64,000 nt of DNA from a bacterium (GTDB lineage: Bacteria; Patescibacteriota; Minisyncoccia; Minisyncoccales; JAZDGI01): positions 1,607 to 65,606 of the forward strand of contig JAZDGI010000013.1 in the NCBI GenBank assembly GCA_043807085.1. The letters are read 5' to 3'. Of this stretch, positions 1 to 48,895 are shown in pieces; positions within the stretch are counted from its first letter, which is position 1, and each line of letters starts with the position of its first letter. The translations under genes were made by a program, and so were the position numbers. Below the pieces are notes generated by a model. It made no database searches. It was not told the origin of the DNA and was given only the letters and a program-made list of their open reading frames with translations.

Positions 1-3000
1 TCGCCGTTGGGCTTTTGGCCGCGCCGGCGTTTTTTATTTCGACCGTTCAGGCGCAGGCGTCAGACATTTCTGAAAAACTTCTGCCTCTGGCGACGGAGCT
101 GGGCTGCGAGACAAAGGTGGCCTGCGCGTCATCATTCACGGCGAATTTCTCAAAAGGGCTTGATTTGGCCGAGAAATACGATATTTACAATACCGAGCAG
201 AAAACGCTGGCGAAATCGTTTAAGCAAGAAGTGCTGGCAAACCTTACAGACGTCAGCGAAGGAGATTTTGAACAAAAAATTATTGAAATTGCGAATAATC
301 TTGTGAAAAATAAGCCCAGTTTGGCCAAACAGCTTGGCGTGAATGCGCAAGGAGTTAAAGCAGCTGAGACAATTGTCGCCGAATTAAAGAGTGTTGGCGC
401 TAATCTGACTGTTTGCAGTCGTCCAGCTGATACCCTCGCACGAGAAGAACTTATTACGTGTTTGAACGCGAGCCGGAAATTGGCGGAACGAGCGGGCGAG
501 GTCAAAACTTATATCACGAAGGAAAGACTGACGACGGCAACCAATGCCTTGAATCTTGAAGAGTCGTTGAGACGCGGCGAATACGGCAATTTAGGCCTGA
601 CGGCCGACGAAGTGGGGATGAAATGTCTTCGGTCCGATTCGCCAGCAGTGTGCGATGAAATCGCAAGTAAATTTTTCGGCGAACAAGGCGTCAAAATGCT
701 TAAAGAAGCGAAGGCTCAAGTGACGCAGACCGAAGAATTTTATCGTCAAAACGTCAAGGATTACACCTTGACAGTCTCTGGCGGAGGAACGTTTATTGGG
801 AAAGAGGCGATCAGTGGAGTTTGTGAAAGCGCATTTAAAGAAAAGAATATTGCGTTGGTGCGCGCCTGTGGCGAATTTGCGGTGAAGAATGGGTTTGCTT
901 CGCAAGTAGATGTGAGCCGCGCACTGGAAATTGTCCAGTCCGTCACCGATAAAAACATAAATTTTGACCTTTGTGTTCAGGATCCCGCCGCCTGTGATAC
1001 TTACGTCTCAAATGAGTTGCGCGGCGAATTTGATGCGATGCGGGAAATAGACAAAATTATGCGTCAGGAGATGGGCTTTGACCCGATGCAGTGTAATCAG
1101 AGCGCCACGAACCCAGAAATCGGAAAAAAATGCTTAGAAGCGTCAAGGCGCGCCTTGCCGCAGATTGAAGCAATCAGCACAAATTCAAAAGAAGCTCAAC
1201 AGCTTGTAGCCAATATCAAAAAACAGATTATTTTTGGAGAAGAAGCGCAGAATCAAAAGAACAAAATCCAGCAAGAATTGACAGTTGGCGGCGGACCGGG
1301 CGGTTGCAAAAACGAAGAGGAATGCAACAAATTCTGCGCGAAACCGGAGAACGGACCAGAATGTCTCGCTTTCGGTACTAAACAGGGTTTTTACAAAGAA
1401 GATGAAATAGCGCAACGTTTTGAAGTGTATAATCAGCAGTTTATTATGCCGACGGATTACATTCAGCCAATGTATCCAACAATGGCGTCAGGAACGCTTC
1501 CTAACGCAATGACCGGGGGAGGAATGGGCCAGAGTCCGGAATGTTTCGCGGCGATTCAGATGGGCGACTTTGCCAAAGCTAAGCAAATTTGTTCTGTGCT
1601 GCAGACATTGTCGATAAATCAAACGTCGATGGAACAATATCAGCAATCCTATCAGCCTGTCTGTCCAATGATTTTTCCGGCGCCGTGCCCAATGGGACAG
1701 TATCGAGAACAACAAATTATGAATGGCTGTTCAGTGTTTGGCGCGTGTGTTTTGTACCAAGGAACGAAGATTCAGTTGCCGACACAGCCGCAGCCGTGCC
1801 CGCAAGTGCCGCCTTGTTCTTCAGGGCAATATCATCCCACGGAATTTAATGGTTGTTTGAAAACGGAATGTCTCGTTTCGCAATGGCAGCAGCCGTCGTT
1901 CCCGATCAACCAAGGCGCCTGCACTGGCAGTCAAATCAGGTGTTATAGTCCCGGTAGTCCGGATGGCTGGTGTCAGATGCCGCCTTGTCCGGTAGTCGTA
2001 CCAGCAACTTCTTGCCCCAGCGGAAACTACTGGGATGGGAGTGCCTGCGTGCCTTCAACGTCTGTGCCGCCAACTGCCTGTACCGGTAGTCAGGTTTGGT
2101 GTCCAAGTCCTTCGGGTGGACCCGGCTGGTGTCAGATGCCGCCCTGTTCGGTAACCACCACTCCTCCAGTAACCACTACTTGTCCCACTGGTCAGTATTG
2201 GTATATGCCGTCAGCCGGTGGAACAGGCTATTGCCGAGATAATGCCAGCGTCAGCGCTTGTACTGGCAGCCAAATAAGATGTTATAATTCCAGCACTCCG
2301 GATGGCTGGAGTCAGATGACGCCCTGTCCGCCGGTTACACCATCAACCACCTGTCCCAGCGGTAATTACTGGGATGGGTCTGCTTGTGTACCCTCAACAC
2401 CCGTGTCACCAACTGCTTGTACCGGCAGCCAAATTAGGTGTTATAATTCCAGCACTCCGGATGGCTGGTGTCAGATGCCGCCGTGTCCGTCTTCAAGCAG
2501 CGGGACAGTATCGTGCTCAGGTTCTTACTCGTCAAATGGAGGACAAGCATGTAATTACTCTATGTGTCCAAATGGATGTATTATAGGGCAAAATGGCTGT
2601 CCTACTGGATGTATGTCTCCTCCGCAAATCAGCGATTGTCCTTCGGGCCAATATTGGTGCGCTCCAACTACTTCGGGGGCAAGCGGATGGTGCCAGTCAT
2701 CGCCGTGTCCGTCTTCAAGCAGCGGGACAGTATCGTGCTCAGGCGCTTACTCCGGTGGAGGGTACGCATGTAATTTTTCAATGTGTCCAAACGGTTGCAC
2801 GTTCGGGTCAGACAATTGCCCGAACGGCTGTATGAGTTCGCCACCGCCAAGCGGTAGCGGTTCCTGTACCGGCAGTCAGGTTTGGTGTCCAGGCTCTTCA
2901 GGAGCAGCCGGCTGGTGTCAGATGCCGCCGTGTCCTGTAGCCGTAACTCCGACAACCTGCCCTAGTGGAAACTATTGGGATGGAAGCGCTTGCGTACCTT

Positions 3001-3161
3001 CAACACCGCCTTCTTGTCCCGATGGCAACTACTGGAATGGAAGCGCTTGCGTCGTCAGCGGCATCTTGTCTGAAAATCAATTAGCTGAAATAGCCTCAGC
3101 TTTCAGCAATCTCCGCAATGAAATATTTGGATTGTTTAATTTGCTTAATTTACCGCGTTAA
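1..3161 (+). CDS. Large secreted cysteine-rich tandem-repeat protein; 5' end lies outside the window (the annotated TTG at 15 sits inside a signal-peptide-like AVGLLAAPAFFISTVQAQA).
   Basis: ORF 15..3161 stays open back to position 3. An N-terminal ~400 aa helical region is followed by at least 6 repeated Cys modules (CTGSQ[IV][RW]C...PDGWCQMPPCP and CPSGNYWDGSACVPST). Confidence 0.7.
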   Translation, partial: AVGLLAAPAFFISTVQAQASDISEKLLPLATELGCETKVACASSFTANFSKGLDLAEKYDIYNTEQKTLAKSFKQEVLANLTDVSEGDFEQKIIEIANNLVKNKPSLAKQLGVNAQGVKAAETIVAELKSVGANLTVCSRPADTLAREELITCLNASRKLAERAGEVKTYITKERLTTATNALNLEESLRRGEYGNLGLTADEVGMKCLRSDSPAVCDEIASKFFGEQGVKMLKEAKAQVTQTEEFYRQNVKDYTLTVSGGGTFIGKEAISGVCESAFKEKNIALVRACGEFAVKNGFASQVDVSRALEIVQSVTDKNINFDLCVQDPAACDTYVSNELRGEFDAMREIDKIMRQEMGFDPMQCNQSATNPEIGKKCLEASRRALPQIEAISTNSKEAQQLVANIKKQIIFGEEAQNQKNKIQQELTVGGGPGGCKNEEECNKFCAKPENGPECLAFGTKQGFYKEDEIAQRFEVYNQQFIMPTDYIQPMYPTMASGTLPNAMTGGGMGQSPECFAAIQMGDFAKAKQICSVLQTLSINQTSMEQYQQSYQPVCPMIFPAPCPMGQYREQQIMNGCSVFGACVLYQGTKIQLPTQPQPCPQVPPCSSGQYHPTEFNGCLKTECLVSQWQQPSFPINQGACTGSQIRCYSPGSPDGWCQMPPCPVVVPATSCPSGNYWDGSACVPSTSVPPTACTGSQVWCPSPSGGPGWCQMPPCSVTTTPPVTTTCPTGQYWYMPSAGGTGYCRDNASVSACTGSQIRCYNSSTPDGWSQMTPCPPVTPSTTCPSGNYWDGSACVPSTPVSPTACTGSQIRCYNSSTPDGWCQMPPCPSSSSGTVSCSGSYSSNGGQACNYSMCPNGCIIGQNGCPTGCMSPPQISDCPSGQYWCAPTTSGASGWCQSSPCPSSSSGTVSCSGAYSGGGYACNFSMCPNGCTFGSDNCPNGCMSSPPPSGSGSCTGSQVWCPGSSGAAGWCQMPPCPVAVTPTTCPSGNYWDGSACVPSTPPSCPDGNYWNGSACVVSGILSENQLAEIASAFSNLRNEIFGLFNLLNLPR
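1915..3050 (+). repeat. DNA-level tandem, imperfect repeats of roughly 120-130 nt that encode the Cys-rich modules.
   Basis: The string ctg(c/t)accggcagtca(a/g)(a/g)t...ggatggctggtgtcagatgccgcc(c/g)tgtcc recurs at about 1921, 2083, 2263, 2413, 2863; the cccagcggaaactactgggatgg unit also recurs. Confidence 0.7.
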
Positions 3162-3169
3162 GTGGGAAA

Positions 3170-3190
3170 TTAGACGTTGAATGTCTAACA
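3170..3190. repeat. REP-like palindrome (ttagacgttgaatgtctaaca) immediately after the stop codon.
   Basis: Inverted arms TTAGAC...GTCTAA, related to the RAYT-flanking REPs at 45408 and 46133 and to the copy at 29013. Confidence 0.55.
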
Positions 3191-5710: not shown

Positions 5711-6418
5711 CTAATCCGCAGGTCCCGGGGAATAATAGATGGGGGAGTGCCAATCTTCCCCACCCCAGGAAGAGAAATGACACATTATATAGTATTCTCC
5801 TCCTGGGAACGACTCGACAAACGAATTGATATTAATCGAGCATTCCCCGTTATCCGCCACTGCGGCGGAGTGAAAGAGGTTTTGCGGAACTGAAAAAAGG
5901 TTCATCCTTATCGGTTCCCCTCCAGCATTTCCAATGGACTCCCAGCTGACGTGAACAACGCCAGCTTTCATCTGGAACTTAACGTTCCGCAGCTGTGGCA
6001 GCTCGCGCAATACTGTTTCAATCAGTACGGGGCTATTTTCCCGCCAGAGGAGGGTGACCATGGCTTTGCAATTTTGTCCAGGAAGAACCTCTATTTGATT
6101 CTTCCCGGGGAAAATATGGGTTCCGTCCTTGTGCTGGATTGAAAGGAAGACTCTACAGGAGCCAGTGTCCCCCAAGAAGAACATATTGACCGTGACAAAT
6201 CGAGTAATGCCGGTGTTGTTTTGCAGGGAAAAACGTTGATAAAGCCAGTTTTCCCCTACCATTTTCTCCTCAAGGGCTATGTTTAGGCCTTGAGCTACAA
6301 TAAACCGAGGAGGTAGTATTATGATATCACTCGGGGCGGCTGAGGTAGGCGTTGGCTGCCAAGCCAGCCCAATCACTGCCACTAAGATTGCCAGAAATAC
6401 CGAGGTTACGTTTTTCAC
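5711..6418 (-). CDS. Hypothetical secreted protein.
   Basis: 235 aa; N-terminal signal peptide MKNVTSVFLAILVAVIGLAWQPTPTSA; no recognised catalytic motif. Confidence 0.5.
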   Translation of the reverse strand: MKNVTSVFLAILVAVIGLAWQPTPTSAAPSDIIILPPRFIVAQGLNIALEEKMVGENWLYQRFSLQNNTGITRFVTVNMFFLGDTGSCRVFLSIQHKDGTHIFPGKNQIEVLPGQNCKAMVTLLWRENSPVLIETVLRELPQLRNVKFQMKAGVVHVSWESIGNAGGEPIRMNLFSVPQNLFHSAAVADNGECSININSFVESFPGGEYYIMCHFSSWGGEDWHSPIYYSPGPAD

Positions 6419-6581
6419 CTTGTTCCTCCTAGACGTATATTTTCCTGGACGGCAATGCCGTCCGAAATCCCTATTTTGACGCGATATTTAATGACCTAAA
6501 GCGATTATACAGATATTTTAATAATTGTCAAGGAGGAGTTTTTTAAAAACATGATAGGCTGAATATATAGACTGAATATAT

Positions 6582-7445
6582 ATGATAGGAAGAATGAAGA
6601 AAAATCAGATTTTGATAATTTTGAGCGGGCTGGTCTTTTTCAATGTTTTGGCTTGGCTGGTAGTTTATGATTCAAGCAAGAATAAGTTTTTGGAAGTGAA
6701 TTTTTTTGATGTGGGACAAGGGGATAGTATTTTTATTGAGACTCCCGGCCGAGCGCAGATTTTGATTGACGGCGGGCCCGACTCGGCTGTTTTAGAAAAG
6801 CTGGCAAAAGAAATGCCTTTTTGGGATAGGACGATTGATCTGGTCATTTTAACGCATCCGGAGAAAGATCATTTGGCAGGTCTTTTGGATGTTTTGAGCA
6901 AATACAAAGTGGAAAATATTTTATGGACAGGAATTATCCGAGATACCGCCGAATATCAAGAATGGGTAAAGCTGATTGAGTCCGAAGGGGCGAAAATCTT
7001 TATCGCCAAAGCCGGCACGCGCGCGCTCTCGGAGAGCGCGCGTATTGATATTTTATCTCCGCTTGAAAGTCTGGTTGGTCAGGAATTCAAAGACAGCAAC
7101 GACACCTCAATCGTTGCTAAATTAACTTTTGGCGAAAGTTCTTTTTTGTTCACCGGCGACATCTCAAAATCAGTTGAAAAAGAGCTGAATAAGAATGATG
7201 TTGATTCCGACGTTTTAAAAGTCGGCCACCACGGCAGTAAAACATCAAGCGGAGAAGAGTTTATCAAAGAGGTTTCTCCGCAAATCGCCGTAATTTCGGC
7301 TGGCAAAAATAACTCTTACGGCCATCCCCATAAAGAAGTCTTGGATATTTTAAATGAATATGGTATTCATATATATGAGACAGGCAAAGACGGCGATATA
7401 AAAATAATTTCAGACGGAGAAAATTATGCAATTTCCAATTTTTAA
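6582..7445 (+). CDS. Membrane-anchored metallo-beta-lactamase-fold protein, ComEC/Rec2 C-terminal domain type. The true start may be ATG 6594 (MKKNQ..., SD-like ggaag).
   Basis: N-terminal transmembrane segment; DVGQGDSIFIETPG, THPEKDHLAGL and VGHHGSKTSS match ComEC MBL motifs. Confidence 0.7.
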   Translation: MIGRMKKNQILIILSGLVFFNVLAWLVVYDSSKNKFLEVNFFDVGQGDSIFIETPGRAQILIDGGPDSAVLEKLAKEMPFWDRTIDLVILTHPEKDHLAGLLDVLSKYKVENILWTGIIRDTAEYQEWVKLIESEGAKIFIAKAGTRALSESARIDILSPLESLVGQEFKDSNDTSIVAKLTFGESSFLFTGDISKSVEKELNKNDVDSDVLKVGHHGSKTSSGEEFIKEVSPQIAVISAGKNNSYGHPHKEVLDILNEYGIHIYETGKDGDIKIISDGENYAISNF

Positions 7446-28473: not shown

Positions 28474-28989
28474 ATGCAGGATATGGATAAAGTTTTAGAC
28501 GGCAAGTTTTTTAATCCGACCCGGGGAAACTTAACTCTGCCTGAAGTCATAGGAGAAATGAAAAGCTACATCAAACAAAAGCCAGAGAAATTTTACGATA
28601 TTATTGTCGGTTGCGATTCCTCTTCGTCCGAAACCCCGAATTTTCCTTTGGCTATTGTCGCTTTGAGAGTCGGGGAAGGCGGCAGATTTTTTCTTAAAAA
28701 GATTGGCTATCAAAACAGGATTTTTCATAGCCGCTGGAGAGAGCGAATTTTAGAAGAAGTTTTTTTATCCTGTCAGCTTGCTCTGCATTTGCGCGGGAGC
28801 TTGGAAAAGGCGTTTGATGAGCAAAACTTTAAGTATCAATTCCGCTACATTCATGCTGACGTCGGCGAAAATGGCGCCACCAAGGATATGATTAGAGAGG
28901 TAACTGGTTTAATTCGCGGCAACGGCTTTGAGCCGAAAATCAAACCCGAATCATTTGCCGCATCCAACGTCGCCGACCGGTATAGTTAG
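28474..28989 (+). CDS. Hypothetical protein; possibly an RNase H-like YkuK/DUF458-type protein.
   Basis: 171 aa; vague resemblance only; no firm motif. Confidence 0.3.
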   Translation: MQDMDKVLDGKFFNPTRGNLTLPEVIGEMKSYIKQKPEKFYDIIVGCDSSSSETPNFPLAIVALRVGEGGRFFLKKIGYQNRIFHSRWRERILEEVFLSCQLALHLRGSLEKAFDEQNFKYQFRYIHADVGENGATKDMIREVTGLIRGNGFEPKIKPESFAASNVADRYS

Positions 28990-29012: not shown

Positions 29013-29037
29013 GTTAGACATTGAATGTCCGACAATC
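29013..29037. repeat. REP-like palindrome, degenerate copy (gttagacattgaatgtccgacaatc).
   Basis: Nearly identical over ~25 nt to the copy at 3170-3194 (ttagacgttgaatgtctaacaatc). Confidence 0.5.
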
Positions 29038-43927: not shown

Positions 43928-44980
43928 ATGCTGGAAAAATTCTTAAGATTGTTTTCCGAGGATGTCGCCATTGACTTGGGTACGGCCAATTCTTTGGTTT
44001 ATGTTTCGGGCCGAGGAATCGTTATTCAGGAGCCCTCGGTAGTGGCAGTAAACCAAAAAACAGGACAGGTTTTGGCTATTGGCGTTGAGGCAAAAAAAAT
44101 GGTGGGCCGGACCCCCAGTCACATTGTTGCCACCAGGCCATTGAGATCGGGCGTGGTTTCCGATTTTGAAGTGACCGAGCAGATGCTGAGATATTTTATT
44201 GAGAAGTCCTGCAAGAAAAAATTTTTTATAAACTCAAGACCCAGGGTAATCATTGGCATTCCTTATGGAGTGACTGAGGTGGAGAAAAAAGCGGTAATAG
44301 ACGCGGGAATGTCGGCAGGAGCCAGGGAGGTTTTTTTGATAGAAGAACCTATGGCCGCGGCCATAGGTTCAAGGCTGCCTGTGCAGGATGCCGGCGGAAA
44401 TTTTATTGTTGACATCGGAGGAGGAACGACCGAAGTGGCAATAATCTCGCTGGGCGGCATTGTTTTGGCAAAAAGCCTAAGAATTGCCGGAGATAAACTA
44501 AATGAAGATATCGTGCAATACGCCCAAGAAGAATATAAATTGCTGATAGGAGAGCGAACAGCCGAAGCGATTAAAATCGGCATTGGTTCGGCTTATCCTC
44601 TGAAGGAAAAGAGAGAAATTCCGATGCGCGGCCGCAATTTGGTTACCGGCTTGCCGGAGGAGATAATCGTTTCCGACAACGATATCCGCCAGGCTATGGA
44701 AAAGTCAGTCAAGCAGATTGTTGAGGAGATAAAAATGGCTGTTGAAGAAACTCCGCCCGAGCTTTTGGCCGACATTATGGTTGACGGAATTCATCTTTCA
44801 GGCGGCGGTTCTTTGTTGCGCGGTTTGAGCACCTTGATTCAGAAAGAAACCAAAATTCCCACTAAGGTTATTGAAGACCCAATGACCGCCGTGGTCAGGG
44901 GAGCTGGCGTGGTGCTGGAGAATTTAGACGAGCTGGAAGAAGTATTAGTGGAGACAGAAGAATTAGAACCGCCAAAGTAA
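43928..44980 (+). CDS. mreB: Actin-like protein MreB, paralog 2.
   Basis: AIDLGTANS; DIGGGTTEVAIIS; 350 aa. Confidence 0.85.
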   Translation: MLEKFLRLFSEDVAIDLGTANSLVYVSGRGIVIQEPSVVAVNQKTGQVLAIGVEAKKMVGRTPSHIVATRPLRSGVVSDFEVTEQMLRYFIEKSCKKKFFINSRPRVIIGIPYGVTEVEKKAVIDAGMSAGAREVFLIEEPMAAAIGSRLPVQDAGGNFIVDIGGGTTEVAIISLGGIVLAKSLRIAGDKLNEDIVQYAQEEYKLLIGERTAEAIKIGIGSAYPLKEKREIPMRGRNLVTGLPEEIIVSDNDIRQAMEKSVKQIVEEIKMAVEETPPELLADIMVDGIHLSGGGSLLRGLSTLIQKETKIPTKVIEDPMTAVVRGAGVVLENLDELEEVLVETEELEPPK

Positions 44981-44984
44981 AAAT

Positions 44985-45239
44985 ATGCTATCAAAACAAG
45001 AAGTCCAACATATTGCCAAGTTAGCCCGGCTGGGCTTGACTGAAAAAGAAATTGAGAAGTTTCAAAAGGACTTGTCACAAATTTTGAATTATGTTGAAAA
45101 ATTAAAAGAAGTTGACGTTGAAGAGATAGAGCCGACCAGTCATTCGGTGGTGGTGGAAAATATAACTAGAAAAGACGAATCTTTTAAATTTAACAAGAAA
45201 CTTATCGAAGGTTATTTAAAAGTAAAATCTGTTTTTTAA
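44985..45239 (+). CDS. gatC: Asp/Glu-tRNA(Asn/Gln) amidotransferase subunit C.
   Basis: 84 aa; HIAKLARL. Confidence 0.85.
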   Translation: MLSKQEVQHIAKLARLGLTEKEIEKFQKDLSQILNYVEKLKEVDVEEIEPTSHSVVVENITRKDESFKFNKKLIEGYLKVKSVF

Positions 45240-45407
45240 CGCTAAAAAAGAGGGGCTACCAAACTATGGATAGCCATATGATTGCTGAGGGAGAAGAACT
45301 CTTCTCCTCCCTCAGCCCGGGGGGGTCAGCGCAGGAATAATGGAAACTTTCCTTTCATCAACCTCCTTTCTCGCGCTCAAGCCAAGTTTTAAGTGGATAA
45401 CTTTGAT

Positions 45408-46175
45408 GTTAGACATCGGATGTCTAACATACTACAATAAAGCATATGATAAGAAAAATTCAATTTACTCCAGGCTCGTATTATCACATCTATAACAGAA
45501 GTAATGACGAACGGTCGATATTCCTTGATGAAAAAGACTATGCCCGATTTCTGTTTTTAATTCTTTTTTACCAAGCGTCAGTTCCCCTTTATAATCTTGG
45601 CCTCCAGACCTCTTATTTTGTTAAACATTCAATGTTTAATATATCTGCAAAAACTCTTCAAAATATAATAATGGCAAGAAGAGTAGAGCTTAATTCTTTT
45701 GCAATAATGCCCAATCATTTTCACCTCTTTTTGCAAGAAAAAGATAAAAAAGGAATTTCTTTCTATCTTCAACGAATCCAAAATGGATACGCGAAATATT
45801 TTAATGCAAAACACGCGAAAAGGGGACATCTCTTCCAGGGCGCTTTCCGCGCCGTCCCCGTAGAAACAGACGAGCAACTTCTCTATCTCTCGGCGTACAT
45901 TCATCGTAATCCAAGAGAAATAGCGGAATGGAAAGATAAAGAAGCAAAATACCCGTGGTCTAGTTATCAAGATTTCATCGGAAAGAATCGTTGGAATGAA
46001 CTTTTAAGACCAAACATTATTCTTGATCACTTTTCTGGCGCCAAGGATTATTACGAATTTGTAGAAACAAGTACTGCGAAAATAAAACCCAGCGAGCTTA
46101 AAACATTCGCTAAAGACTTTTTTCTTGAGGATGTTAGACATCGGATGTCTAACATATCATCGGATGTCTAACATA
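45408..46175 (+). mobile_element. REP-associated tyrosine transposase unit: RAYT gene flanked by perfect REP palindromes (gttagacatcggatgtctaac).
   Basis: The identical 21-bp palindrome occurs at 45408-45428 and 46133-46153, with an extra partial copy at 46158-46174. The unit lies between gatC and gatA. Confidence 0.75.
45446..46171 (+). CDS. REP-associated tyrosine transposase (IS200/IS605-like Y1 HUH transposase).
   Basis: HUH motif NHFHLFL; catalytic Tyr in SAYIHRNP; 241 aa. The 3' end reads through the REP copies. Confidence 0.8.
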   Translation: MIRKIQFTPGSYYHIYNRSNDERSIFLDEKDYARFLFLILFYQASVPLYNLGLQTSYFVKHSMFNISAKTLQNIIMARRVELNSFAIMPNHFHLFLQEKDKKGISFYLQRIQNGYAKYFNAKHAKRGHLFQGAFRAVPVETDEQLLYLSAYIHRNPREIAEWKDKEAKYPWSSYQDFIGKNRWNELLRPNIILDHFSGAKDYYEFVETSTAKIKPSELKTFAKDFFLEDVRHRMSNISSDV

Positions 46176-46189
46176 TCAAAATTAATTCT

Positions 46190-47605
46190 ATGAGTTTGAC
46201 CGGTTTGACAATCAAGCAAGTCCATGACGGTTTGGTAAAAAAGGAATTTTCGGTTGTGGAATTGACTAAGGCCTATTTGGAAAAAATAAAAAAAGTTGAT
46301 AAAGACATCAACGCTTATTTGGCTGTGACCGAGGATTTGGCTTTGGCGCAGGCCGAAGAAGTTGATAAAAAAATCGCCAGAGGAGAGGAATTGGATATTT
46401 TATCGGGCGTTCCCTGTTCCCTGAAAGATGTTTTTATGCTGGAGGGAGTAAAATGCACGGCCGGGTCGCGAATTCTGGAAAATTACATTGCGCCTTACGA
46501 CGCCACTGTGGTTAAAAAAATCAAGGATAGGGGAGCGGTAATTTTAGGGAAAAACAATACGGATGAGTTTACTATGGGGTCTTCGGGTGAAAATTCAGCT
46601 TTTGGCCCGACGAAAAATCCTTTGGATTTGAGTCGGGTGCCGGGTGGTTCTTCTTCGGGCCCGGCCGCGGCCGTGGCGGCTGATATGGCAGTCTTTGCTT
46701 TAGGCACAGACACGGGAGGATCAATTCGCCAGCCTGCTTCTTTTTGCGGCATAGTCGGATTAAAACCGACTTACGGCGCCGTTTCCCGTTACGGCGAAAT
46801 AGCTTACGCTTCATCTTTGGACCAGGCGGGACCGCTGGCTAAGACCGCGGAAGATTGCCAGATTGTATTTGAAGCCATAAAAGGCAAAGACCCAGCTGAT
46901 TCGACATCCGTCAAATCTAAGGTTTCGGATTTCGGATTTCGGATTTCGGATTTACGCATTGGTGTTCCCAAAGAATACTTTATTAAGGGGATTGATACCG
47001 AAGTTGAAAAAATAATAAAAAATGCGATAAAGAGATATGAAAAAATGGGAGCGAAAATTGAAGAAATCAGCTTGCCGCATACAAAATATGCTTTAGCGTG
47101 CTATTATATAATTGCAACCTCTGAAGCGTCGGCGAACTTGGCTCGTTATGATGGCATTAAATACGGGGCAAGCCAAAAAGCTGAAAACTTATTGGATGTT
47201 TATTTGAAGAGCAGGGAGGAGGGGCTTGGGCCGGAAGCGAGAAGGAGGATTGTGCTTGGGACCTATGTTTTGTCAGCCGGTTATTATGAGGCTTACTACT
47301 TAAGAGCGCAAAAAGTCAGAACGTTGATACGGCGTGATTTTGAAAAGGCTTTTGAGAAAGTGGATGCGATTTTTACACCAGTTTCTCCGACTACAGCTTT
47401 TAAATTAGGCGAAAAAATTGATGACCCTTTGACAATGTATTTATCTGATATTTTTACGATTTCCATAAACTTGGCTGGTTTGCCGGCGCTTTCTTTACCG
47501 GTCGGTTCGGCTAACGGTTTGCCGGTCGGTTTGCAAATAATCGGCCGTTGGTTTGAAGAAAATAAAATTTTAAATATCGGCAAGCTCTATGAGCAGCATA
47601 CTTGA
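46190..47605 (+). CDS. gatA: Glutamyl-tRNA(Gln) amidotransferase subunit A.
   Basis: Amidase signature GGSSSG...GTDTGGSIR; 471 aa. Confidence 0.9.
   Translation: MSLTGLTIKQVHDGLVKKEFSVVELTKAYLEKIKKVDKDINAYLAVTEDLALAQAEEVDKKIARGEELDILSGVPCSLKDVFMLEGVKCTAGSRILENYIAPYDATVVKKIKDRGAVILGKNNTDEFTMGSSGENSAFGPTKNPLDLSRVPGGSSSGPAAAVAADMAVFALGTDTGGSIRQPASFCGIVGLKPTYGAVSRYGEIAYASSLDQAGPLAKTAEDCQIVFEAIKGKDPADSTSVKSKVSDFGFRISDLRIGVPKEYFIKGIDTEVEKIIKNAIKRYEKMGAKIEEISLPHTKYALACYYIIATSEASANLARYDGIKYGASQKAENLLDVYLKSREEGLGPEARRRIVLGTYVLSAGYYEAYYLRAQKVRTLIRRDFEKAFEKVDAIFTPVSPTTAFKLGEKIDDPLTMYLSDIFTISINLAGLPALSLPVGSANGLPVGLQIIGRWFEENKILNIGKLYEQHT
46923..46954 (+). repeat. Tandem 7-nt repeat (TTTCGGA) x4.5 inside the gatA coding sequence.
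   Basis: ggtttcggatttcggatttcggatttcggattta. Confidence 0.7.
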
Positions 47606-48131: not shown

Positions 48132-48202
48132 CGCGGGATAGAGTAGCAGTAGCTCGCGGGTCTCATAAGCCCGAGGCCCCCGTGCAAATCGGGGTCCCGC
48201 AA
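48132..48202 (+). tRNA. Initiator tRNA-fMet (CAT).
   Basis: Near-colinear with E. coli tRNAfMet; C1-A72 mismatch (CGCGGGA/TCCCGCA); GGG/CCC run in the anticodon stem; loop CTCATAA. Confidence 0.75.
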
Positions 48203-48210
48203 CATTTATT

Positions 48211-48282
48211 GCCGGCGTAGCTCAGTGGTAGAGCAATGCTTTCATAAGGCAGTGGTCGTCAGTCCGAATCTGACCGCCGGCA
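48211..48282 (+). tRNA. tRNA-Met (CAT), elongator; a lysidine tRNA-Ile cannot be excluded.
   Basis: Acceptor GCCGGCG/CGCCGGC; D-arm TAGCTCAGTGGTAGAGC; anticodon loop TTCATAA. Confidence 0.7.
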
Positions 48283-48301
48283 TTTGTCGAATTATTTATT
48301 T

Positions 48302-48376
48302 GGGCCCATAGTGTAGCCTGATTAACACGTCTCCCTGTCACGGAGAAGATCAGGGGTTTAAATCCCCTTGGGCCCG
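48302..48376 (+). tRNA. tRNA-Asp (GTC).
   Basis: Acceptor GGGCCCA/TGGGCCC; anticodon loop CTGTCAC; T-arm AGGGGTTTAAATCCCCT; followed by a T8 run. Confidence 0.75.
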
Positions 48377-48475
48377 CTTTTTTTTATTGACAACACTCTC
48401 TATTGTGTTAAAAGAGAATCAAGCGGGAGGGAGTACCTTCCCAATTAAATTTGACAAGAAAGGAGGTGATAGGTA

Positions 48476-48661
48476 ATGCCGGGAGCGATAGTCTTTACCG
48501 ATAGAATGACTGGAAGAATGGCCGAAGAGATTAGTAGGCAGACGGGTGAGCCAATAAGCTCTGAAAAAATCAGGGATATGCTAGAAAAGCCGGGCCCAGA
48601 AGAATTGATAGTTGAGGCGATTGTGGCGCGATTAAAGACGCCAGTTGGGTCGTCTTTGTAA
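48476..48661 (+). CDS. Small hypothetical protein (61 aa) at the 5' edge of the GC-shifted island.
   Basis: Strong SD aaaggaggtg 8 nt upstream; no recognisable motif. Confidence 0.4.
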   Translation: MPGAIVFTDRMTGRMAEEISRQTGEPISSEKIRDMLEKPGPEELIVEAIVARLKTPVGSSL

Positions 48662-48679
48662 AAAACAGAAAGGAAAGAT

Positions 48680-48895
48680 ATGGCGATAACGATTAGGGAT
48701 CTTCCTCTCGGACAAGGCGACATTACTCTTTCTTTCCGTAACAGAAAAAAAGAGAGAGTGAGAGGCTTGGTGGTTTTGCGTGGACGGAGAAAATATTTCA
48801 TTGCTCGAAATTCGCCCAAAGAGTCTTTCGGCCCTGGCACTTGCGTGGAAGATATTTGGTCTTTGAAAGGAAGTGCAAGACAGAAAAAAGCGTGA
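48680..48895 (+). CDS. Small hypothetical basic protein (71 aa).
   Basis: SD-like gaaaggaaag; 19 nt after the previous ORF; no recognisable motif. Confidence 0.35.
   Translation: MAITIRDLPLGQGDITLSFRNRKKERVRGLVVLRGRRKYFIARNSPKESFGPGTCVEDIWSLKGSARQKKA

Follow-up and report, generated by a model that had tools for sequence, protein, structure and literature searches.

What kind of element sits between gatC and gatA, two normally adjacent genes, in the stretch of bacterial DNA analysed here (contig JAZDGI010000013.1; "the window" is the whole stretch of 64 kb)? An earlier reading of the window, which we call the initial annotation, had seen a compact unit of a transposase gene and its palindromes, resembling the REP-associated tyrosine transposases (RAYTs) and their repetitive extragenic palindromic (REP) sequences. 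RAYTs and REPs are the standard example of a transposase that has been domesticated together with a repeat population of long standing, and their characterisation has, to our knowledge, been confined almost entirely to Proteobacteria, Cyanobacteria and Bacteroidetes. The genomes of Patescibacteria, in contrast, are streamlined, and repeats in them are assumed to be scarce because each kilobase is under pressure. We consider it likely that the element is a REPtron-type unit, in which a vertically kept gene for a class-2 Y1/HUH single-stranded DNA (ssDNA) endonuclease is accompanied by a cognate hairpin repeat of 23–25 bp. As a variant it diverges from the RAYT subclasses described so far and is apparently undescribed for Patescibacteria (the Candidate Phyla Radiation, CPR), and the literature searched contained no link between RAYTs or REPtrons and CPR.

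First, what does the window itself contain? The unit is built around an intact open reading frame (ORF) of 241 codons on the forward strand (45446–46171), which, as the initial annotation held, encodes an HUH/Y1 protein with the motifs NHFH and YIHRNP. On both sides of this Y1 gene stands the 25-bp palindrome ATGTTAGACATCgGATGTCTAACAT, at 45406–45430 on the left and, with the same sequence and orientation, at 46131–46155 on the right, where it is translated within the tail of the ORF. The repeat common to both flanks is 27 nt long (GATGTTAGACATCGGATGTCTAACATA) and has 12-bp arms around one central base; the identical 21-bp palindromes reported earlier, GTTAGACATCGGATGTCTAAC, were recovered exactly at 45408–45428 and 46133–46153 and occurred in none of 100 shuffles. 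Both flank copies carry the loop CGG and therefore lie in direct orientation, and folding of the hairpins as ssDNA gives −8.9 kcal/mol (z = −6.6). The partial third copy previously seen at 46158 proved to be a tandem duplication, in which the 19 nt CATCGGATGTCTAACATAT at 46139–46157, comprising the loop and the right arm, recur at 46158–46176 as a half-copy. This duplication moves the frame by one base, so that a TAA within GTCTAAC becomes the in-frame stop, and the last 15 codons do come from the repeat copies, with DVRHRMSNISSDV and its stop spanning the right palindrome and the half-copy. The relatives compared here (8 loci found by looking up exact proteins plus 80 taken from the species representatives of GTDB, 28–75% identical and mostly Patescibacteria) encode proteins of about 225 aa (called genes 223–225 aa) that end in ...LE ahead of the hairpin, both the protein lengths and the stop-to-hairpin offsets being taken from the first in-frame stop.

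The palindrome is not confined to this locus. As had been noticed before, degenerate versions lie at two other places in the window, namely TTAGACGTTGAATGTCTAAC at 3170–3189, 9 nt past the stop of a 1048-aa ORF (15–3161), and TTAGACATTGAATGTCCGAC at 29014–29033 (hairpin 29013–29033), 24 nt past the stop of the ORF 28474–28989 and 66 nt before alaS; the degenerate pattern that describes them has zero matches in shuffled sequence. A description of these two copies as standing after rpoC and rplQ was dropped, given that Pfam assigns RNaseH_like to the second ORF and no family at E ≤ 1e-5 to the first, which reaches the start of the window. No other repeated palindrome families were found in the 64-kb window. 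Might the flanking pair nevertheless be a chance pair of palindromes or an assembly artefact? Apart from the AT-richness of the region nothing speaks for this, and with no match in any shuffle and the same architecture recurring in about 90 independent assemblies, we give it practically no credence.

Second, to which class of Y1 enzymes does the protein belong? It passes the Pfam model Y1_Tnp (PF01797) with 40.8 bits against a cut-off of 23, and reaches just 14.7 bits against a cut-off of 55 with the NCBIfam IS200 model (NF033573). Among 28 aligned family members, the NCBIfam RAYT model NF047646 (REP_Tyr_transpos) matches all 28 (best E 1.1e-12), whereas the IS200 model matches 12, weakly (best E 4.5e-4). 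In the same alignment codons 90–93, N90-H91-F92-H93, are invariant and fall on a predicted strand (91–98; the HUH codons are 45716–45724), a GH-FQG motif is likewise invariant, and in YIHRNP (151–156) the residues Y151, I152, H153, R154 and N155 are invariant and P156 is kept in at least 90% of the members. Tyr151 (codon 45896–45898) stands at the end of a predicted helix (142–152), and the motif YPWSSYQD follows in the C-terminal tail. Quentin et al. (2018; PMC6006769) take Y-x3-NP as the signature of class 2 (TnpA_REP/RAYT) and the combination of DH[VI]H with Y[IV]ENQ as that of IS200; since YIHRNP fits the former, the window protein is assigned to class 2. The AlphaFold (AF2) model has a mean predicted local distance difference test score (pLDDT) of 72, above 90 in the core and poor in the C-terminal third; its top Foldseek match in the PDB is 4er8, the E. 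coli TnpA_REP with a REP hairpin (E 1.7e-6). Foldseek gives a probability of 1.00 to 4er8, 2a6o and 2xma, with the TnpA proteins of IS608 and ISDra2 ranking next, all of these PDB relatives being remote by sequence alone. Helix-turn-helix (HTH) families of Pfam matched none of the 28 members, and a PHROGs search found no match.

The family is a large one, with 623 clusters (50% identity, E ≤ 1e-30) in a full HMMER scan, and the best match among GTDB species representatives is 71% identical. Among the close homologues, those with a taxon label belong to Patescibacteria, which supports the earlier impression of a CPR genome. Members of about 35% identity (L036, L057, L059, L065, L066, L071–L075, L078, L046 and L067) are found on contigs of metagenome-assembled genomes (MAGs) that are labelled outside Patescibacteria, as Nanoarchaeia, Bathyarchaeia, Gammaproteobacteria, Pseudomonadales, Spirochaetia or Omnitrophota. 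Either these are mis-binned or mislabelled CPR contigs, or the family has spread beyond Patescibacteria.

Third, when and how did the unit come to lie between gatC and gatA? A relative from Hainich groundwater (L004) has the same gene order, ProRS-MreB-GatC-Y1-GatA-ORF, with 80% identity to the window in GatA, 85% in MreB and 76% in Y1, and the two Y1 genes differ with a dN/dS of 0.17, that is, under purifying selection. Another relative (L205), whose GatA is 67% identical, is an empty site, in which the TAG of gatC directly abuts the ATG of gatA; the unit thus indeed splits a normally adjacent pair, as had been claimed. Together, the empty site and the shared synteny indicate that the 950-bp block is an insertion into an abutting pair that is older than the split between the window and L004. 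Further Y1 members occur upstream of ProRS (L004 2242–3030, L023 7669–8343, L045 9980–10636) and, in L138 (915–1571), between ProRS and MreB; the recurrence of the ProRS-MreB-GatCA neighbourhood suggests local hopping or a preferred region.

An empty site is also what would be expected if the block were an autonomous insertion sequence (IS) of the IS200 type, that is, a hairpin–tnpA–hairpin unit of about 770 bp whose flanking hairpins are subterminal ends and which happened to land between gatC and gatA. The compactness of the unit, the direct orientation of its hairpins, which is that of IS200/IS605, the related units at differing sites elsewhere, the several paralogues possible per genome and the Pfam domain name, "Transposase IS200 like", would all suit such an element. 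The motifs, however, are those of class 2 rather than DH[VI]H with Y[IV]ENQ, and they join the model scores and the match to 4er8 in separating the protein from ordinary IS200 TnpA. Nor does the family behave as an active IS would: identical copies were not seen, paralogues within one genome being 31–72% identical; tnpB was not found next to Y1 among the called genes of L001–L008; the site is conserved in L004, whose flanking genes are near synonymous saturation; the hairpin is dispersed on its own, without the gene; and the orientation of the flanks is mixed across the family. We therefore regard an autonomous IS200-like element as improbable, and return to the REPtron-type unit and the behaviour of its hairpins in the relatives.

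In nearly all of the roughly 90 relatives, the best sequence shared between upstream and downstream regions is a short hairpin, of which one copy precedes the ATG by about 35–55 nt and another stands at the stop codon; in 70 of 89 genes a stem of 8 bp or more lies near the stop, with a median offset of 0. The sequence of this hairpin is specific to the lineage (TGTTAGAC..., TGTCCAAAG..., TCCAAGGTTCGACCTTGGA, TGTACACCTGAGAGGTGTACA, CTATAGAGGTGAGACCTCTATAG), the stem starting with TGTTAGAC in the window and with TCCAAGG, TACAAGG, TGTACACC and others elsewhere. As to copy number, the Y1 gene is single within the 64-kb window, whereas the related MAG H14-bin043_1 contains six paralogues, 31–72% identical, each with a hairpin of its own. 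Such co-evolution of gene and repeat has already been described for RAYTs. The stems being perfect palindromes, the two strands differ at just 1–3 loop bases, and a nearly identical hairpin can form on both.

Does the hairpin also exist apart from the gene? In the relatives' loci there are 11 cognate hairpins with at most 2 mismatches outside Y1 genes over 646 kb (about 1 per 59 kb), as compared to 2 non-cognate ones over 6,277 kb (about 1 per 3,100 kb). A metagenome scan for TGTTAGAC-N7-GTCTAACA returned 145 matches at 120 loci, 105 of which have a centre that extends the stem, where some 6% would be expected by chance; the other 40, with a non-pairing centre, were set aside, as a 16-base pattern can match by chance. 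Of the copies retained, 19 flank a Y1 gene, 1 is inside one and 50 lie too near a contig end to be classified. The remaining 35 clearly stand apart from Y1 genes, being over 800 nt away from the contig ends and having no Y1 gene closer than 200 nt. The window's exact 23-mer appears with unrelated flanks in over 20 metagenome contexts, so that the hairpin alone is the repeated unit; together with the two degenerate copies in the window, these contexts dispose of the idea that the palindrome is unique to the locus.

Several of these copies show signs of having been processed as DNA. Half-hairpins adjoin the identical palindrome in at least 5 other contexts (L114, L167, L184, L192 and L208), much as the half-copy does in the window. 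They stand at about 1231 in L114, about 155 in L167 and about 806 in L184, in L192 and L208, at 20–41 in L205 and at 46158–46176 in the window; the contexts are unrelated, and most of the duplications comprise the loop and the right arm, some being left-arm fragments. Their form suggests, as far as sequence can tell, processing at or near the loop. The innermost bases of the hairpin also vary between copies: both window flanks have the core CATCGGATG, the dispersed copy at 3170 has CGTTGAATG, and the dispersed copy at 29014 has CATTGAATG, which recurs in the right flank of L004; a further copy inside the window gene has CATTCAATG, the reverse complement of CATTGAATG, as does the left flank of L004. 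The window flanks thereby share a compensatory change from T-A to C-G, which on comparison of the copies is a concerted change of both.

It is possible to accommodate these observations in a single scheme, for which E. coli TnpA_REP and IS608 TnpA provide the analogy. The enzyme would bind the hairpin as folded ssDNA, for example on the lagging-strand template, and Tyr151 would nick and rejoin the DNA beside or within the hairpin. This activity could copy, move and homogenise hairpin copies, and would then account for their sparse dispersal, for the concerted change of the flanks and for the recurrent half-hairpin duplications.

Fourth, how might the unit be expressed? The window gene is preceded by a promoter-like site (45410–45438, forward strand) of the form TAGACA-17-TACAAT, which the initial annotation does not mention; its −35 element is contained in the left hairpin, and the end of its −10 element is 7 nt from the ATG. 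Of 87 family genes, 47 have a TAnnnT that begins at −12/−13, where the background per position is 2.7%, and 86 have ATG as their start codon. Because the −10 hexamer ends so close to the start codon, this arrangement implies that the Y1 mRNA would be leaderless and that the promoter would overlap the presumed binding site of the enzyme. The Y1 gene would accordingly be transcribed from its own promoter, with the −35 element and the spacer in the upstream hairpin, and enzyme bound to that hairpin, perhaps also to the internal one, could exert negative autoregulation. No T-run follows the right hairpins of the window; as they thus lack a T-run terminator, gatA is probably expressed by read-through across them. 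The notion that the hairpin serves elsewhere as a portable −35 promoter element found no support, inspection by eye revealing no −10 hexamer at the right spacing near the dispersed copies.

Given an upstream hairpin that overlaps the promoter and a downstream hairpin placed at the stop codon, could the hairpins be mere cis-regulatory signals, whether operators, terminators or mRNA stabilisers, next to an enzyme engaged in host ssDNA processing that has nothing to do with their spread? Both dispersed copies in the window sit shortly after the ends of ORFs, dispersal is low, and the combination of NH[YF]H with FQ fits RAYT subclass 2.1, which is reported without REPs. Yet the hairpin differs wholly from lineage to lineage while matching among flanks, gene interior and nearby dispersed copies, as would be expected of enzyme–substrate co-evolution and not of generic terminators. 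The stems, moreover, are not followed by a T-run, and half-hairpin duplications recur beside the copies, which points to processing at the DNA level. A purely regulatory role accordingly seems to us quite unlikely, and the REPtron-type unit remains the better account.

Beyond its flanks, the unit contains a hairpin that had escaped the initial annotation. This internal copy, TGTTAAACATTCAATGTTTAATA, lies in frame at 45619–45641, upstream of the HuH motif, and covers approximately codons 58–66 (FVKHSMFNI). When 78 genes are compared at the aligned position, 33% have a site that agrees with their own flank hairpin at 80% identity or more, as against 1% of non-cognate pairings. The peptide follows the hairpin: TCCAAGGTTCGACCTTGGA is read as LQGSTLE and TGTCCAAAGCCGAGCTTTGGACA as VQSRALD, and residue 62, which is S, R, L or Q in close relatives, tracks the central triplet of the internal hairpin (TCA for S, CTA for L and CAG for Q in the cases where the DNA was read). 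A second in-frame cognate copy occurs just past the tyrosine motif in the distant members L073, L065, L074, L064 and L088 (about +458 to +486 nt). We put forward, tentatively and with more doubt than conviction, the idea that the gene is a small array of its own substrate, in the promoter, at a fixed position of the coding sequence and at the stop, which would let the enzyme sense and repress the gene that encodes it and correct that gene continually. Were this true, the internal hairpin would be a maintained operator or copy-correction site, and a protein loop and a DNA target would be forced to co-evolve.

Fifth, where does the unit stand among known systems? Its nearest counterpart is the RAYT/TnpA_REP REPtron, exemplified by E. 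coli yafM/rayT (4er8; Nunvar 2010; Ton-Hoang 2012; Bertels & Rainey 2011, 2017). Common to both are the HUH motif with a single Tyr, the Y-x3-NP signature and the best fold match, a gene flanked by cognate hairpins that also disperse extragenically, and divergent paralogues with their own repeats, conserved synteny and purifying selection; a low copy number would be a further likeness. The CPR protein differs in its length of about 225 aa, in an insertion of about 35 aa before the HUH strand and in the distinct C-terminal tail that contains YPWSSYQD, the CPR hairpins are short perfect palindromes that form no REPIN doublet, and the host phylum is Patescibacteria. Subclass 2.4 (Bertels Group 4; Cyanobacteria and Bacteroidetes) is the sole subclass reported to have in-frame REPs in tnpA_REP and "double-foot" REPs (PMC6006769). 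It resembles the CPR family in having an in-frame cognate REP within a transposase gene that is not disrupted, symmetric feet on both sides of the palindrome, and low REP abundance (about 14 flanking 16-mer copies in Group 4). In CPR, by contrast, the main internal site lies upstream of HuH, at a position conserved across lineages with unrelated hairpins, and the motifs are FQ and YIHRNP instead of WQ and YIxNNP. Subclass 2.1 (Bertels Group 1, "TIRYT") is similar in length (about 238 aa) and shares NH[YF]H, FQ, Y[IV]H.NP and the "SS" of the proximal tail; it is reported to lack REP-like hairpins and to carry a C-terminal HTH (Bac_DnaA_C, HTH_23 or HTH_28; PMC6006769), whereas in CPR hairpins are nearly universal and the 28 members examined have no detected HTH family. 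The TnpA proteins of IS200/IS605 (IS608, ISDra2 and IS200; subclass 1.1), finally, have in common with the unit the Y1/HUH fold, subterminal hairpins around a small gene and the direct orientation seen in the window, and they differ from it in motif class, in the identical copies and tnpB that were not seen here, and in that the CPR hairpins are dispersed alone.

A number of observations weigh against a REPtron-type unit kept by vertical descent. The window protein scores 40.2 bits with the RAYT model, against a curated cut-off of 80. The canonical REP foot, 5′ GT[AG]G, was not found at the hairpin base, either in the window or in other lineages. Classical REPtrons are consistently inverted, whereas the orientation of the CPR flanks is unfixed, 26 being direct and 20 inverted across the family. 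The two dispersed copies in the window each mismatch at 4 of 21 positions, and the density of dispersed hairpins is low, about 1 per 50–60 kb. This density resembles that of Bertels RAYT Groups 1 and 4, with 12–14 flanking 16-mer copies, and not that of Groups 2 and 3, with 57–140. Related Y1 units occupy differing intergenic sites across genomes, and L205, empty between gatC and gatA, carries, roughly 4 kb away from gatA, a Y1 gene whose tail bears the identical palindrome; the whole unit is hence mobile on evolutionary time-scales. Between the window and L004, the Y1 DNA (45446–46126 versus 6001–6681) is 77–85% conserved, more than the neighbouring genes, and its third positions at identical residues differ by 0.29, compared with 0.48–0.52 in the neighbours and a saturation expectation of 0.49, although the amino-acid identity of Y1 is below that of the neighbours. 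Such low synonymous divergence fits simple vertical descent poorly, and could come from constraint at the DNA level or from later exchange of the cassette between lineages; self-correction of the gene by its own enzyme, if it takes place, may account for it as well. On balance, the class-2 motif, the better fit to the RAYT than to the IS200 model and the first-ranked fold match to TnpA_REP support the compact REP-plus-RAYT unit of the initial annotation.

The surroundings of the unit have features of their own. Upstream lies gatC (44985–45239, forward strand; 84 aa), identified by TIGR00135 (69.5 bits) and Pfam GatC and 80% identical to the GatC of L004, and downstream lies gatA (46190–47605, forward strand; 471 aa; TIGR00132, 616.7 bits). 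The non-coding stretch of 166 nt between gatC and the left palindrome (45240–45405) contains two hairpins, 45254–45275 and 45284–45316, and is missing from the empty site. By BLAST against all fetched loci it is not repeated elsewhere, and against Rfam it gave no match beyond a meaningless miRNA hit (E 0.13). Its stems are kept in L004 (5690–5960) through different sequences, GGCTA..TAGCC in one and GGCCGCT..AGCGGCC in the other, and the second stem is GAGGGAGAAGAA/TTCTCCTCCCTC in the window and AAAGGAGAG/CTCTCCTTT in L004; the loop AAAC(A/T)ATG and the motif ATTGCT are conserved between the two. The stretch may represent a small RNA or a pair of terminators, or it may be a relic. Within the coding sequence of mreB there is a perfect 26-nt palindrome, GAACCTATGGCCGCGGCCATAGGTTC (44345–44370), with 13-bp arms and no loop. 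Past gatA, the intervals 48132–48377 and 48476–48895 take in three clustered tRNA genes (tRNA-Met, tRNA-Met and tRNA-Asp) and, after them, two small ORFs of 61 and 71 aa, the first ORF with a strong Shine-Dalgarno sequence, AAAGGAGGTGA; this region has about 50% GC, richer than its surroundings, and no Rfam match.

Finally, what does the unit mean for the biology of these organisms? A large RAYT-type family is now shown in the streamlined genomes of Patescibacteria. With a minimal hairpin of about 23 nt and with its gene, promoter and substrate interwoven, the family offers many natural pairs of enzyme and hairpin specificity, suited to studying how HUH enzymes read hairpins and useful for HUH-tag and ssDNA-editing tools. 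The locus between gatC and gatA is a test case of how such a unit is tolerated inside the essential gatCAB operon. And if the enzyme does act on the hairpins in its own gene, the unit would be a self-referential module of enzyme–substrate co-evolution, common to hundreds of CPR lineages.

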